Part shown: piece by piece, positions 8,225 to 58,860 of the stretch
How the letters are laid out: the number at the start of each line of letters is the position of its first letter
Position numbering within the stretch: the first letter of the stretch is position 1
Source: Botryllus schlosseri
Taxonomy: Eukaryota
NCBI GenBank assembly: GCA_051294905.1
Contig: CM119372.1
Span: 39,124,001-39,188,000, forward strand
Length of the DNA stretch: 64,000 bases
Reading direction: 5' to 3'
The notes under the pieces: generated by a model
Databases searched by the model: none
The model's input: only the letters and a program-made list of their open reading frames with translations
Told to the model about the DNA's origin: nothing
Translations under genes and position numbers: made by a program

Positions 8225-8400
8225 CTTGTTGGTAATAGCGACCGATGCCAGTTTCACATTTGACATATTTGAATGCAAAGTATTGGAATCTTGGTACATA
8301 TTCATGTTGGTTGGCACCATAATTTTGCGTTTATCACGGCGGCACCATCGACCTTCTTCAATATTAACAATTACGGCTTTTAACAGTATATTCATATTTA

Positions 8401-8449
8401 TTGACTCGAAGAACTTTTCGCGTGCCTCTTATCAAGAGCAACCGGCACG
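8401..8449 (-). ncRNA. Minimal type I hammerhead ribozyme variant (mirror copy in left pLTR)
   Basis: Reverse complement of 10521-10569. Confidence 0.6.
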
Positions 8450-8687
8450 ATAAAGGATACAGAACAGAGATGGATTCAAAACCAAATGGCGAATTGTGAC
8501 GCAATAATGCAAATTTATAAATAACATGAATGGAAATTCAGCCATAGCAACAATGCAGCGTATATAGCAACAAGCAACTTGAAAAGTAGAGCGCGTGAGG
8601 TATAAAATACAAATACAATGAGACAATGCAGCAACACAGAGGAAAAAATTTGAACAAAAACACGGACGAACAGCTAAGCAACGACAA

Positions 8688-9832
8688 CTAGTGTGAAATT
8701 TTAAGATTATACAAAAATTCTTTCTGGCGACAAAGGACCGGGTTGTTTAGTTTGATGAAAGTGGATTCCAAAGCAGTTAAATGAAACATTGATCTACCCT
8801 TGGATAAAACTGAAAACATGTCGTCTGAATAGTTCAAGGCGCAGGACGGGTTGTCGATCAAATGCTGGCCAATTGAAGAACTGCCTGTCAACACTTGGCT
8901 GTACGATTGGGATTTTGATGCGTGTTTGCATTGCTGAGTGACACTTTCAGAATCAGGGGACTGCGATGCCGATCTTATCCTCTTAGGAACGTGCTGTTTG
9001 ATACGTTCTAGCAAGCGTTGGGATGTGCGTCCCACGTACCGACTGTCACAGTGGCATTTATATTCATATATTACCATACTTTGATGAAAAGCAGGCAGCA
9101 CATCCTTTCGCGTGTTTGGCAAAATTTGTTTTGTTGTATACACAATCCTCGCATTAACAGTGTAGTAACAAGATTCGACGCATGATCTGATTGATTTGGT
9201 GAATCTATTAGAAGCAGAGCCAAGCCAAGGAAGGTGTATGTACACTGGGCATTTGTTAGGGCCGAAAACTGTAGGTTGTCTGAATTTGCGCATTTTCTCC
9301 GCAATAGCAGAGTCAATGATGCAATCGGAATATCCATTTTTGGACAGAATGGATCTAATCCAATCTAATTCTGTGGGCAATTTGTCTTTAGAGCAAATCA
9401 TGAGTGCTCGATGCACAAGGGTGGAGATCAAATTTAATTTACGCTTTTTCGGGCAAAAGGAGTTCCACCTAACATAATGACCGGTGAATGTTGGCTTCCG
9501 ATAGACTGATGTGGTGAATTGGTGACCCGTTTTTTCCACCAATACATCAAGAAATGGTAGGGAACTATTTTGTTCTTTATCTACTGTGAATTTAAGGGAT
9601 TGGTGCATTGAATTTAACGTATCAAAAAAGGCATCACACTGTCGCTCACTTTGAAAAACTACAAACGTATCATCAACGTATCGATAATACATAAGAGGTT
9701 TATCAGGGCCCGAGAATAACTTATTCTCATGGAACCCAACAAAAATATTCGCGAGGGTGGGTCCCAGTGGTGAACCCATAGCAATGCCGTCAATTTGCTT
9801 ATACATCATATCGTTGAAACTGAATTCAACCG
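8688..9832 (-). CDS. Penelope-like reverse transcriptase (C-terminal part) + GIY-YIG endonuclease, 5'-truncated but open
   Basis: YKQIDGIAMGSPLGPTLAN, YYRYVDDTF, LPFLDVLV, VYRKPT, and VIYEYKCHCDSRYVGRTSQRLLERIKQH; the first ~38 aa of ORF 8688..9947 come from the inverted arm and are not genuine. Confidence 0.9.
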
Positions 9833-10282
9833 ACAACAAAACAAATTTTGCCAAACACGCGAAAGGATGTGCTGCCTGCTTTTCATCAAAGTATGGTAAT
9901 ATATGAATATAAATGCCACTGTGACAGTCGGTACGTGGGACGCACATCCCAACGCTTGCTAGAACGTATCAAACAGCACGTTCCTAAGAGGATAAGATCG
10001 GCATCGCAGTCCCCTGATTCTGAAAGTGTCACTCAGCAATGCAAACACGCATCAAAATCCCAATCGTACAGCCAAGTGTTGACAAGCAGTTCTTCAATTG
10101 GCCAGCATTTGATCGACAACCCGTCCTGCGCCTTGAACTATTCAGACGACATGTTTTCAGTTTTATCCAAGGGTAGATCAATGTTTCATTTAACTGCTTT
10201 GGAATCCACTTTCATCAAACTAAACAACCCGGTCCTTTGTCGCCAGAAAGAATTTTTGTATAATCTTAAAATTTCACACTAG
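9833..10282 (+). pseudogene. Inverted duplicate of the Penelope GIY-YIG coding end
   Basis: Same peptide as the C-terminus of the minus-strand ORF except one G>S change. Confidence 0.85.
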
Positions 10283-10520
10283 TTGTCGTTGCTTAGCTGT
10301 TCGTCCGTGTTTTTGTTCAAATTTTTTCCTCTGTGTTGCTGCATTGTCTCATTGTATTTGTATTTTATACCTCACGCGCTCTACTTTTCAAGTTGCTTGT
10401 TGCTATATACGCTGCATTGTTGCTATGGCTGAATTTCCATTCATGTTATTTATAAATTTGCATTATTGCGTCACAATTCGCCATTTGGTTTTGAATCCAT
10501 CTCTGTTCTGTATCCTTTAT

Positions 10521-10569
10521 CGTGCCGGTTGCTCTTGATAAGAGGCACGCGAAAAGTTCTTCGAGTCAA
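10521..10569 (+). ncRNA. Minimal type I hammerhead ribozyme variant (U3-A8 core) in Penelope pLTR
   Basis: ttgctc-TTGATAA-G-aggcacg-C-GAAA-agttct-TC-gagtcaa: stem I ttgctc/gag(t)caa, core UUGAUAA...GAAA, short stem III AAG/CUU, predicted cleavage after C10562. Confidence 0.6.
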
Positions 10570-13500
10570 TAAATATGAATATACTGTTAAAAGCCGTGTT
10601 CAAGTTCTGTACCACCAACCAGTTATTCAAGTATTAACAATTAGCACATTAGATATGTAACAAGTGCTGTTTACTCGTGCGTCAATAACTAAGTATTAGA
10701 GGCCGTTGAAACTAAAATTAGAGTAAGAACATTGGTGTCTTAGGTTCGATGAATCTTCATCTTGCATTACATCGAATTATTAAGTCACTGGGCAATCAAA
10801 TTCACCACGATGACGTATGTCTTACAATATTCCTTCTGCAGCCTAATTCGACTTTTGAAACTTATTCCTCTTTGGCATTATTCCAGTCAGTTGGCAAATG
10901 TTGTACGATTGCCCTAAGAGCTATCCCGCAGTTGGGAACCCTGGCCGATATAACTGTATGTTAATAATGAATCTTATGCAATTATGACCTATTCAAGAGG
11001 GTGTAAGTGTTGGCTTTGACAACCACAAAGATAATGCACGTTGTTCGTGAATGATATGTTGATTTGTGAATTGCATGAATAAGAAGTGAATGAAGCCTAA
11101 GCATATTCATAAATAACCGTCATCAATTATTCGTATTGTGTAGGATTGCATTGCACTTCATTTTTGTTTTTAACGCCCACCATACCATCCAATCGGCTAA
11201 CATACCTTAGTATGGTGAAGCATCTTTATCGAATGTTGCCAGAAAATGAACCAAAGGTGCTAGTCGCTACATTGATGCTACGATTCAAGTGTAGTATCAC
11301 TCTTCTGTGCGTTCTAAATGCGAACGCATTGACATCGCGATCACGTAACATGTTGATTCAGTGGAAAAGTGAAATTGTCGCGAGTGAATATTGTTCTGGG
11401 GTTCGCCTGTCAACCTTCGAAGGAAATCACTGCACGATGCCCCCGGGAAAAGCAACCACTTTGAGAACAACGGAAGTGCGATATCCGTGATTTTTGTACT
11501 GCAGTGATTTTAGTATTTGATTATTTAATAATACGATAAGCTGAATGTAAAATTATGAAGCTCTGTACCTCCAAGAAGCTCTTCGAATACAAAAGTGATA
11601 AGTTAGTTTCTTCATTTTCTTTTTGTGTAATAAATTCTGGCTGACTAGTGCGAATGAGACTAAAAAAAATACGAATGGAGCTGTAAAAGGTTGAACAGCA
11701 ATGTTCCTGCCTTTTTTTGCATACTACTTGGATATGGTTCCTTCGTCTTTTGATCCCGGAAACCTAATATGCTTTATTGTGAAACAGACTATTTGGGTCA
11801 CAAACGTGCAAAATTTCGTTGATGAATTCGAGTCCGATAGTTTTGATCGTCATTTTGTGTACAACTTTCTGGTTTTACCTGCTATGACGGTAAGATAAAT
11901 ATAGGCACATGAAGTCACGGAAGACAATGAGCTTCGGATTGAAAAGAAACAGGCACTGATTCCTACTATCGCTGACTATCGCATTTTTAACTTTGCAACT
12001 ACCTCCCAAAGGTGTTTCACATATTTTCGCACACTGTTGGTTCCAGAACCCGCACTTCCACACCATCTCGGATTTGGTATCACGCGGCCTGTTGAATATT
12101 ATAGAGTCGCTCAACCCGCCAGTGTACAATCTAAGTTCAGTAGGTTCGCGATCTTCAGCGAATTATCTTCGCCGCATATTCTGCATCTGCGTCTGAAGTA
12201 AAAGCGTTATGAAATAGCGAAGAAAAAATGTGATGAGTCAATTCATCCTCCGTAGGAAAATCTGTGATATATATCATCTCCCTTGACGAGTGACTTTTAT
12301 GCGAAAGTAGTAACGATAGTTACTAAAATGTAGCATGGAGAAGAACCAATTGTCAAGCTCATGTCAATTTTTTTAAACGGGGTAGACGATGCACTGGCAA
12401 CGTATTCGGTTATATGATGATATACAATAAAAAGAAAGCAATAGATAAGAATGGTCTTGAAGTATTCCCTGGCATATTGCATTATTACGATATTTTCTGT
12501 AGGGAATCAAAGAGGTTATAGAATCATGGGAAATGGATTATGTCGGCTATATCCGTGCTCTTCAATCGGGTGTACGCCCGAAAGTTACCATAACTTAAAA
12601 AAGGGTGCACCAATTTAACGGGTGTTACTGGAAAATAATACCCAGACAGGCTGATTACTAGCTTACGCAATAAATAGGCAGGTTTATGCTTCAGAGCAGG
12701 TTGGCTGGATGTACAGTACAGTACAATTTGGCACAACGTTCATGTCACGAGTATGAGCAGCCAGAAGATTGCATTCGATTGGTTTATTTTGCTACTGGTT
12801 GCTTTCGGAGTAGAACATTATGGAGCTAAATTGTGTTTAGCTTGCGGCTTCTTTCTTTAGTTTAACATATAATAAATGCAACAACATAAATAATATTGGA
12901 CATACGTAAGTCCTTCAACCAATGCTGGGCTACAAAGTTTCAATAAGAGACATGTACGCTGAATTAAGAGTAAGAACAGTAGATACCATTTTAGCAAGAG
13001 CGATGAAAATGAATTTAGCAAGATGTTATGGCACGTCGATATGTAAGATCGTGGTCTGGTATCTAGAGTGCTGATAAGAATTTGGCATTAGCATTCATCA
13101 TATCTGGGGTGAACAATTTGGGAGTGAATGTTAAAAGGATGTATCATTCTGACAAAAGATGAAAGATGAAGAGCACTAGGTTCCATATATAATCGAAAAT
13201 GGTATAACGAGTAACACAAAAATATTCAATCAGGTATATGTAATTATTTTTAATTCGGCTTTTCTGACACGTAGCATGGTATGACTTGCAACGATGTGAG
13301 GGATTAACTTTCAATAAGCGTTTCCGCAACGTAAGTACGTATAATCGTATTATAATATTAGGATTTACAAGCACCGGCATTTTACATAGGATTATTAGCA
13401 AAACCTTGCGTGAATATCAAATTTATATGGCATGGAACACATAGGATAGTATTACGAGATTTAATGATAGGGCGTAACCTATACTTGAGACTTGGATTTT

Positions 13501-18649: not shown

Positions 18650-18816
18650 ATACAATTGAATAGTGCATTCATATTGAAATAAACCCGAATATTTTCGGCT
18701 GACACTCGTCAGGGGTAATCGTGAGCAATTAGTAGAGAATTGGAAAGAACATTGTATATCAACAATCGTATCACAAAATATATTGAAGTTCTGTACCTCC
18801 AAGAAACTCTTCATGT
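18650..18816. mobile_element. Miniature Penelope insertion (antisense pLTR piece + sense tail), second family
   Basis: Left part is the reverse complement of ~58690-58827; right part is the sense tail GAAGTTCTGTACCTCCAAGAA; TSD ATCTTCCTT at 18641-18649 and 18817-18825. Confidence 0.75.
18682..18726 (-). ncRNA. Minimal type I hammerhead ribozyme, canonical core
   Basis: Minus strand accc-CTGACGA-G-tgtcagc-C-GAAA-atat-TC-gggt; stem I accc/gggt; palindromic stem III AATATT. Confidence 0.75.
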
Positions 18817-58278: not shown

Positions 58279-58860
58279 TGGTGTAGTGTACGAATATAAG
58301 TGCCACTGTGATTGTGGCTACGTGGGAAGAACGTCAAAGCGTCTGCAGGAACGCATAAACCAGCATGTCCTCAAATTTATCAGAACACGTGCATCACGCT
58401 CGGTGAAAAGCTCGCCCTTAACTCATCCACTAAGCTCGATGGTGACCAATCGAAGGCCATTAATTCTGCAATCTGCAAACATCTGTTGGATAATCCGATT
58501 TGTGCGAATAATTATAGAGACGACAAATTTCGTGTTATTGGGAGGGGTCGTTCAAATTTCCGCTTGTGTGCCTTGGTGTCGACTTTTATCAAAATACACC
58601 TACCGAAACTCTGTCAACAGAAGGAGTTCGTGTGCCACCTGGGAATAGTGCACTGAACGCTCTCTCATTCGAAGTTTCATGCTGGTGACGTCATATTTTG
58701 TGACACGATTGCTGATATACAATGTTCTTTCTTATTCTCTACTAGTTGCTGACGATTACCCCTTACGAGTGTCAGCCCGAAAATATTCGGGTTCATTTCA
58801 ATATGAATATACTATTCAGTTGTATACTGAAGTTCTGTACCTCCAAGAATCACTTCATAT
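58279..58860 (+). pseudogene. Penelope-like GIY-YIG 3' remnant with pLTR, decayed hammerhead (58748-58793) and tail
   Basis: GVVYEYKCHCDCGYVGRTSKRLQERINQH, then after a frameshift SAICKHLLDNPICA...PKLCQQKEFV; hammerhead core mutated to CTTACGA; tail GAAGTTCTGTACCTCCAAG. Confidence 0.85.

Follow-up and report, generated by a model that had tools for sequence, protein, structure and literature searches.

We consider it likely that positions 10521-10566 on the plus strand of the window (the whole 64,000-nt stretch of Botryllus schlosseri DNA that was analysed) hold a hammerhead motif of type I, with its opening at helix I, of approximately 46 nt. The motif belongs to a young Penelope-like element (PLE) family, has a U3-A8 pair in its core and a pseudoknot in stem II, and is predicted to be cut between C10562 and G10563. 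Comparison of related copies supports a hammerhead-derived motif in which U3-A8 stands for C3-G8 and the predicted cut falls after C10562. All hammerhead core positions were present between 10535 and 10562, except that U3/A8 replaced C3-G8. The motif is located 12 nt upstream of an ATG, as measured from the proposed cut site.

We observed that the window reads ttgctc TTGATAA G aggcacg C GAAA agttct TC gagtcaa at 10529-10569, exactly as quoted in the initial annotation. The same annotation set the start of the feature at 10521. The motif that it quoted begins at 10529 on the plus strand, and the additional cgtgccgg had been left unexplained. A mirror copy had been reported at 8401-8449; this copy is exact and lies inside a 765-nt inverted repeat of 100% complementarity. 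The parts of the motif are as follows.

10521-10526, plus strand: pseudoknot 5' strand CGUGCC, forming six Watson-Crick pairs with 10544-10549
10527-10530, plus strand: linker GGUU of 4 nt from the pseudoknot strand to helix I, its length kept in 34 of 35 aligned copies
10531-10534, plus strand: helix I 5' strand GCUC, positions 2.4-2.1, pairing with 10563-10566
10535-10541, plus strand: core U3 U4 G5 A6 U7 A8 A9, aligning with CUGACGA/CUGAUGA of the sister lineages
10542-10550, plus strand: G10.1, an unpaired A, pseudoknot 3' strand GGCACG (10544-10549) and C11.1; G10.1-C11.1 is G-C in 33 of 35 copies
10551-10554, plus strand: G12 A13 A14 A15.1, as read from the sequence
10554-10561, plus strand: helix III region AAGUUCUU, a quasi-palindrome with A-U, A-U and G-C around UU
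10562, plus strand: C17, with cleavage between C10562 and G10563 predicted by hammerhead numbering
10563-10566, plus strand: helix I 3' strand GAGU, positions 1.1-1.4, assigned by covariation
10575-10577, plus strand: ATG of the PLE reading frame (MNILLKAVFKF...), which opens at least 508 aa in six tandem-array loci
8404-8449, minus strand: identical motif in the inverted arm of the 765-nt repeat, with C17 at 8408

The stretch G aggcacg C had been interpreted as the hairpin of helix II. This did not hold, as the 7 nt enclosed by G10.1 and C11.1 include six (10544-10549) that are complementary to the hexamer 10521-10526; 4 nt separate this hexamer from helix I, which follows it. What remains of stem II is the G10.1-C11.1 pair only, together with a 6-bp pseudoknot formed from its 7-nt loop. 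Since the loop of the one-pair stem forms these six pairs, the pseudoknot takes the place of helix II. The linker between the pseudoknot strand and helix I has 4 nt, so that there is no room for the 3' strand of a helix IV. Two other layouts were rejected. An ordinary helix II made of 10521-10526 and 10544-10549 is not preceded by CUGAnGA in family A, the family to which the window copies belong, and a non-circular permutation (cf. PMC10085705) was set aside as the layout is explained by the literature on pseudoknot hammerheads.

The proposed structure was scored in an alignment of 35 distinct real copies that represent lineages A, D, F, G, H and B. It comprised helix I, the 3-8 pair, G10.1-C11.1, the pseudoknot and helix III, which gave 15 pairs and 525 cells. 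We observed that 94.9% of the cells were paired, compared with 17.0-40.4% when the partners were slid by 1-3 columns. The covariation score was 0.421, while the maximum after sliding was 0.101 and none of 500 shuffles reached 0.421. Seven of the 15 pairs changed on both sides. For the pseudoknot, 95.7% of cells were paired and three of the six pairs had changes on both sides. Pair 1 was G-C in 17 copies, C-G in 13 and A-U in 1; pair 2 was C-G in 17 and G-C in 17; pair 5 was A-U in 17, C-G in 15 and G-C in 1. At the same position and spacing in each case, the versions of the pseudoknot were CGUGCC/GGCACG (lineages A and D), GCUGAC/GUCAGC (B and G) and ACUGGC/GCCAGU (H). Among 100 matches listed, we identified two additional compensated versions, ACUGAC/GUCAGU (at least 13 matches) and GCUGGC/GCCAGC (one match). 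Helix I (4 bp, 92.9% of cells paired) covaried as well. Its pair 2.2-1.2 was C-G in 15 copies and U-A in 15, with U-A in the family A copy of the window and C-G in family B; the tandem-array copies of family A have GGGU for GAGU in the 3' strand and so a U.G wobble at this pair.

Positions 3 and 8 had been said to have changed together with the pair preserved. We confirmed this: the pair is U-A here and C-G in the sister lineages, and in the 35 copies it was C-G 16 times, U-A 16 times, U-G once and unpaired twice. This covariation reflects a single evolutionary switch. As the copies fall into few clades, the independent events behind the covariation are few, namely about five pseudoknot versions and one 3-8 switch. 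The invariance of the core in the 35-copy alignment (A1) is uninformative because the copies were picked by a core-demanding pattern, and that of G12-A15.1 was forced by the same selection. Such patterns were also the means by which F, G, H and J were identified, hence core invariance among these lineages is ascertainment; F, G and H were represented by one retrieved copy each, with more among the matches listed. For core conservation, the informative lineages are A, B and D alone, as these were found by homology.

A canonical core had also been announced for a related family, at the equivalent position, and we located this family at 18693-18712 on the minus strand (CTGACGAG..CGAAA). This family, B, is present in the window twice.

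18683-18726, minus strand: family B copy with canonical core CUGACGA; pseudoknot 5' strand GCUCAC with one mismatch
58748-58792, plus strand: second family B copy, decayed, with G5 changed to U (T in the DNA, at 58762-58768) and an extra C before C11.1

Families A and B are homologous from approximately 75 nt upstream through the first codons, and UUGAUAAG in A occupies the exact place of CUGACGAG in B. Written in parts, family A is CGUGCC GGUU GCUC UUGAUAA G A GGCACG C GAAA AGUUCU UC GAGU and family B is GCUGAC GAUU ACCC CUGACGA G U GUCAGC C GAAA AUAU UC GGGU. Among relatives that were retrieved by flank homology and not by the motif, UUGAUAAG is still present in 10 of 13 D-type copies and 9 of 15 older single ones. 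Since it is kept in these older relatives of A, the U3/A8 core is old in the superfamily. The U3/A8 families have proliferated recently. Helix III of the sister lineages forms the perfect palindromes AAUAUU and AAGCUU.

In family B generally, and in the window at 58748-58755, the GCUGAC of the pseudoknot 5' strand continues with GA and so mimics a second CUGACGA box. This leads pattern searches to a false core that lies 13 nt upstream of the real one, and the mimicry also makes a competing local hairpin possible, CUGAC-GAGU-GUCAG. The upstream CUGACGA was rejected as the core of family B, as no helix I fits it there.

Next to these homologous copies, we counted matches to the architecture. YTGANRAG-N7-CGAAA occurred three times in the window, where 0.04 matches were expected, and none of 100 shuffles reached three; two of the matches belong to the young PLE and one is the family B copy at 18693-18712 on the minus strand. 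The longer pattern YTGANRAG-N7-CGAAA-N2-8-TCGNG gave 7,124 matches in the genome and 2 in the control, and the U3/A8 form of the architecture 877 and 1, respectively. In sister family F, 555 copies had the pseudoknot strand GUGCC at the predicted distance, compared with 0 in the control; the pseudoknot of this family has five pairs, GUGCC/GGCAC. Four identical copies with a CUGAUGAG core were observed among the matches listed (C1:39623149, C2:11662062, C2:18116705 and C3:3818731 of genome G000). Their upstream hexamer AGUUAU is unpaired with the loop GUUAGU, and they may represent a lineage or a duplicated segment without the pseudoknot.

These counts bear on the reading that the motif is a chance likeness in an AT-rich untranslated region, where U3/A8 merely builds a local hairpin CUCUU-GAU-AAGAG (U3-A9, U4-A8). 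Such a hairpin is indeed present in families A and F (-3.0 kcal/mol), and the CUGAC-GAGU-GUCAG hairpin of family B overlaps the core too. However, the registers of the local hairpins differ between A and B, and the hairpin is weak in H, broken in D copies and outside the minimum-energy fold, whereas the pseudoknot, helix I and the core are kept across lineages. With 7,124 matches against 2 in the control, and three in the window against 0.04 expected, we regard chance likeness as highly improbable.

The host of the motif was called a young Penelope element, and both parts of this name were borne out. With a 221-nt query we obtained at least 41 matches of 98-100% identity in the 495-Mb genome (best 40 of 444 candidates scored). 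The assignment to Penelope is based on an RVT_1 match (E 1.3e-8), a GIY-YIG-like C-terminal part recognized by eye and tandem units of 2,825 bp. The window contains two copies of family A.

9833-10635, plus strand: 5'-truncated PLE copy (end of the reading frame, untranslated region, motif, first codons) with a 'tail'; homology to the tandem reference stops 73 nt past the cut site (L003)
8373-9832, minus strand: longer inverted 5'-truncated PLE copy without the tail, which stops 35 nt past the cut site (L010)

The arms of the inverted repeat, 8373-9137 and 9833-10597, are 695 nt apart, and a minus-strand frame (8688-9968) is open through the central 695 nt. The two copies are the usual inverted pair of 5'-truncated PLE insertions, dead on arrival; any function would belong to the full-length tandem copies of family A. 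These form head-to-tail arrays of the 2,825-bp unit on three small contigs, C77, C37 and C23 (L011-L019, L029-L030), which are the only places where we saw the reading frame of family A intact. In the arrays, a frame of at least 508 aa starts at the ATG 12 nt past the cut site and is not interrupted before the locus ends; 468 aa with the RVT_1 match come from the upstream part of the following tandem unit. The frame of family A is open across tandem units.

We identified 31 instances of the motif in 30 family A loci. Six of them, in tandem arrays, run on into the reading frame. The remaining 25 are dispersed, and all of them pass the cut site; 9 end 34-38 nt beyond it and the other 16 end 65-73 nt beyond it. 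These two end classes, approximately 30 nt apart, correspond to the 'tail' described for Penelope-like elements (PMC8557442, PMC11167929). Because 25 of 25 dispersed instances contain the cut site and a further 34-73 nt, the RNA that was reverse transcribed was uncut at its 3' motif, as has likewise been reported for the Anolis PLE (PMC11167929). The reading frame with reverse transcriptase in tandem units, the inverted 5'-truncated pair and the 30-nt 'tail' place the motif in the pLTR of a PLE.

Two further arrangements of PLE ends were observed. At L065:130-240 two tail ends of different lineages are nested within 110 nt, an A-like tail having a B-like '..AAAUUAUUCGGGUG..AUGAACGUACU' just upstream, which fits insertion of PLEs into or beside earlier copies. 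In subfamily E (L094-L111, e.g. L098:1455-1688), 16 of 17 copies share a 2-nt deletion of G5A6. Here a 238-nt PLE tail fragment is embedded in a repeat longer than 3.1 kb, for which 4 of 4 locus pairs showed 94-96% identity along the full length. The fragment hitch-hikes in this other repeat. Since it lies inside a larger repeat it was not spread by the PLE, and we rejected subfamily E as proof that the core is dispensable.

RNA reads were collected on L011:1200-2200. There were 13 reads from X24 and 89 from X22 (single cell), in addition to contigs from X1 and X2. No pile-up of ends was observed among them, at a depth of at most about 9 at the cut site. The template-switch oligo was found directly before L011 positions 1510 and 1528 (window 10389 and 10407), in three X22 reads each, which suggests candidate transcript 5' ends in the pLTR, approximately 155-175 nt upstream of the hammerhead cut site. 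An AATAAA is present at 10568-10573, between the cut site and the ATG, and single-cell coverage of the sense strand falls to zero within about 40 nt past it. One of the genomic end classes lies 34-38 nt past the cut site, and a link to 3'-end formation at AATAAA is possible.

Conservation within family B was assessed in 41 aligned copies out of 1,628 candidates. Differences from the majority amounted to 18 of 574 (3.1%) in the core and, with the pseudoknot 3' strand columns assigned off by one gap column, 10 of 779 (1.3%) in the pseudoknot and helix I. The flanks showed 82 of 2315 (3.5%) upstream and 63 of 1763 (3.6%) downstream. The core is therefore no better kept than the flanks within this family. 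As inserted copies decay neutrally, this comparison does not decide about the active lineage.

Searches with Rfam models gave no matches at the gathering score in the whole window. No Rfam hammerhead was found with E up to 10 on 10400-10700 (301 nt) or around the family B copy, and the top score of RF00163 in the genome was 22.8 bits, at a cut-off of 34 (best 73 of 70,463 candidates scored). Because only nested pairs count in an Rfam search, a pseudoknot adds nothing to the score. We attribute the missing match to the limits of the models and do not read it as absence of a hammerhead.

We also calculated folding energies. The pseudoknot alone had -9.1 kcal/mol, while the minimum-energy fold had -12.5 kcal/mol. 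A CGAA/UUCG hairpin pairs C11.1-A14 with U16.1-G1.1 and would bury G12-A14 and C17; together with the pseudoknot it reached -11.2 kcal/mol. Helix I alone had -0.8 kcal/mol, a joint helix III only -1.4 to -2.8 kcal/mol and the self-duplex of AAGUUCUU -1.4 kcal/mol. According to these models, helix III (a quasi-palindrome of 2-3 bp) would be too short for a stable stem in a monomer, and the nearest-neighbour energies favour a fold predicted to be inactive. The minimum of the dimer cofold did not include the joint helix III; the energy model covers neither pseudoknots nor tertiary contacts. A ctctt/aagag hairpin had been named as a competitor that could sequester the core. It had -3.0 kcal/mol, was absent from the minimum-energy fold and its register was not conserved across lineages. 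In the model, CGAA/UUCG is the stronger competitor of the two.

If the motif is active, the RNA of the element would be cut between C10562 and G10563, 12 nt before the AUG. Such a cut might process tandem transcripts or take off the capped leader, or it might have no useful effect. Cleavage would probably be weak or slow and would take place in a dimer, where two copies build a joint helix III. This helix would consist of AAGUUCUU paired with itself, giving six pairs around two U.U. A joint helix III from two copies has been proposed for other PLE hammerheads, for which the published model combines a short, palindromic helix III with action as a dimer (PMC4209133, PMC6765202).

It could also be that the conserved pseudoknot fold is real but does not cleave here, and that a hammerhead-derived RNA or cDNA structure was kept for another step, such as recognition by the reverse transcriptase/endonuclease, translational control from its place 12 nt ahead of the AUG or formation of the 3' end. 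The predicted monomer fold, which sequesters G12-A14 and C17, the AATAAA between the cut site and the ATG and the passage of all 25 dispersed family A instances beyond the cut site by 34-73 nt are all in line with this. So are several published observations: core mutants of the Anolis PLE (PAc) hammerhead inserted normally in vitro, and RNA-seq reads ending at its cut site were reported as absent (PMC11167929); minimal PLE hammerheads cleave poorly in vitro (PMC4209133); and PLE clades that have no hammerhead proliferate well (PMC8557442). Nevertheless, the catalytic core has been kept in both deep lineages while three helices and the 3-8 pair compensate. Selection for catalysis predicts this pattern, whereas a knot that binds protein does not need it. 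Moreover, hammerheads with U3-A8 and those with a one-pair stem II and pseudoknot are active elsewhere (PMC3088659, PMC11300833). We therefore consider a non-cleaving structure unlikely, and a hammerhead that is cut after C10562 remains our preferred explanation.

The initial annotation suggested that the motif is a new kind of variant, and here we disagree with it. Natural U3-A8 covariation was described by Perreault et al. in 2011, and such cores were proven active in vitro (PMC3088659). In PLE hammerheads U3-A8 was described by Cervera and De la Pena in 2014, in Schistosoma mansoni, with approximately 1,300 descriptor matches (PMC4209133). Perreault et al. also described a natural hammerhead with a one-pair stem II and a 6-bp pseudoknot, in which a shorter pseudoknot decreased the rate 20- to >100-fold (PMC3088659). 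The class of pseudoknot hammerheads was found by Weinberg et al. in 2015 and its crystal structure (PDB 8YDC) was presented by Zhan et al. in 2024, with a one-pair stem II shown to be active (PMC11300833). Each of the odd features, that is U3-A8, the pseudoknot stem II and the dimer-type helix III, is thus already in print.

The combination of these features might be another matter. Tentatively, and from sequence comparison, the PLE lineages analysed here may represent a form possibly undescribed for retrotransposons, though we would not lean on this: a pseudoknot hammerhead of approximately 46 nt without a hairpin helix II or a helix IV, with a minimal dimer-type helix III, in about 7,000 copies that are missed by Rfam and by published PLE descriptors, and in both C3-G8 and U3-A8 clades. 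In the literature searched, outside the supplements of PMC4209133 and Lunse et al. 2017, we did not find the pseudoknot form inside a PLE or without helix IV. An occurrence count of the word 'pseudoknot' in PMC4209133 gave none, and the supplementary figures of that paper may include insect PLE hammerheads with a one-pair stem II and pseudoknot.

To date, bioinformatic searches and an engineered crystal construct are the sources from which the pseudoknot form is known. If our reading is true, this form would be linked to a defined biological carrier with a young, intact family, and if the motif cleaves, it would be among the smallest natural pseudoknot hammerheads. Three published hammerhead oddities, the U3-A8 core, the pseudoknot for helix II and the dimer-type helix III, occur together here, naturally and in abundance, in one retrotransposon group, with canonical and variant cores side by side in one genome. 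The young family, with its open reading frame, could serve as a test bed for the role of hammerheads in Penelope-like elements. Annotation with Rfam models misses thousands of such motifs. The known picture of hammerhead chemistry is unchanged.

PLE-associated hammerhead variants with a short stem III are reportedly able to cleave as dimers (Lunse, Weinberg and Breaker, 2017, cited in PMC10085705 and PMC6765202). Those variants resemble the present motif in their association with PLEs, their diminished stem III and the dimer model.

PLE hammerheads in general are located in the pLTR (PMC4209133). The minimal hammerheads of metazoan PLEs described in that paper are similar to the motif in this location, in being of type I, in the 4-bp helix I and in G10.1-C11.1. 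A tiny helix III suggestive of dimers, palindromic there and a quasi-palindrome here, is a further likeness. They also share U3-A8, as in Schistosoma mansoni Cercyon, and the occurrence in thousands of copies that form consensus families with compensatory changes. The PLE consensus there of a 4-5 bp helix I and G10.1-C11.1 agrees with the 4 bp and the 33 of 35 copies observed here, while the consensus palindrome at 15.2-16.2 / loop 3 is represented here by AAGUUCUU, a palindrome broken by the central UU (PMC4209133). The same hammerheads differ from ours in having a hairpin helix II of 6-8 bp, where we found one pair and a 6-bp pseudoknot, and an unpaired nucleotide between A9 and G10.1, which is absent here (PMC4209133).

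In the pseudoknot hammerhead 8YDC, as in our motif, the loop closed by G10.1-C11.1 makes six pseudoknot pairs that substitute for helix II, a short linker connects the partner strand with helix I and the core is standard (PMC11300833). In contrast, 8YDC has its partner strand inside a hairpin loop, that of the 5-bp helix IV, whose linker forms a minor-groove triplex, and its helix III is of full length (PMC11300833); here helix IV is absent and helix III is minimal. The pseudoknot hammerhead of Perreault et al. is of type II and comes from a metagenome (PMC3088659), whereas ours is of type I and resides in a retrotransposon.

The motif also resembles that of the Poseidon PLE of Anolis, PAc, in which the hammerhead likewise overlaps the junction of the pLTR and the reading frame, and genomic copies and reverse transcription starts lie downstream of the cut in two end classes approximately 30 nt apart (PMC11167929). 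In PAc the start codon precedes the cut site by 26 nt and the core has C3-G8 (PMC11167929), while in the motif described here the cut would fall 12 nt before the ATG, the core has U3-A8 and the copies end 34-38 and 65-73 nt past the cut site.
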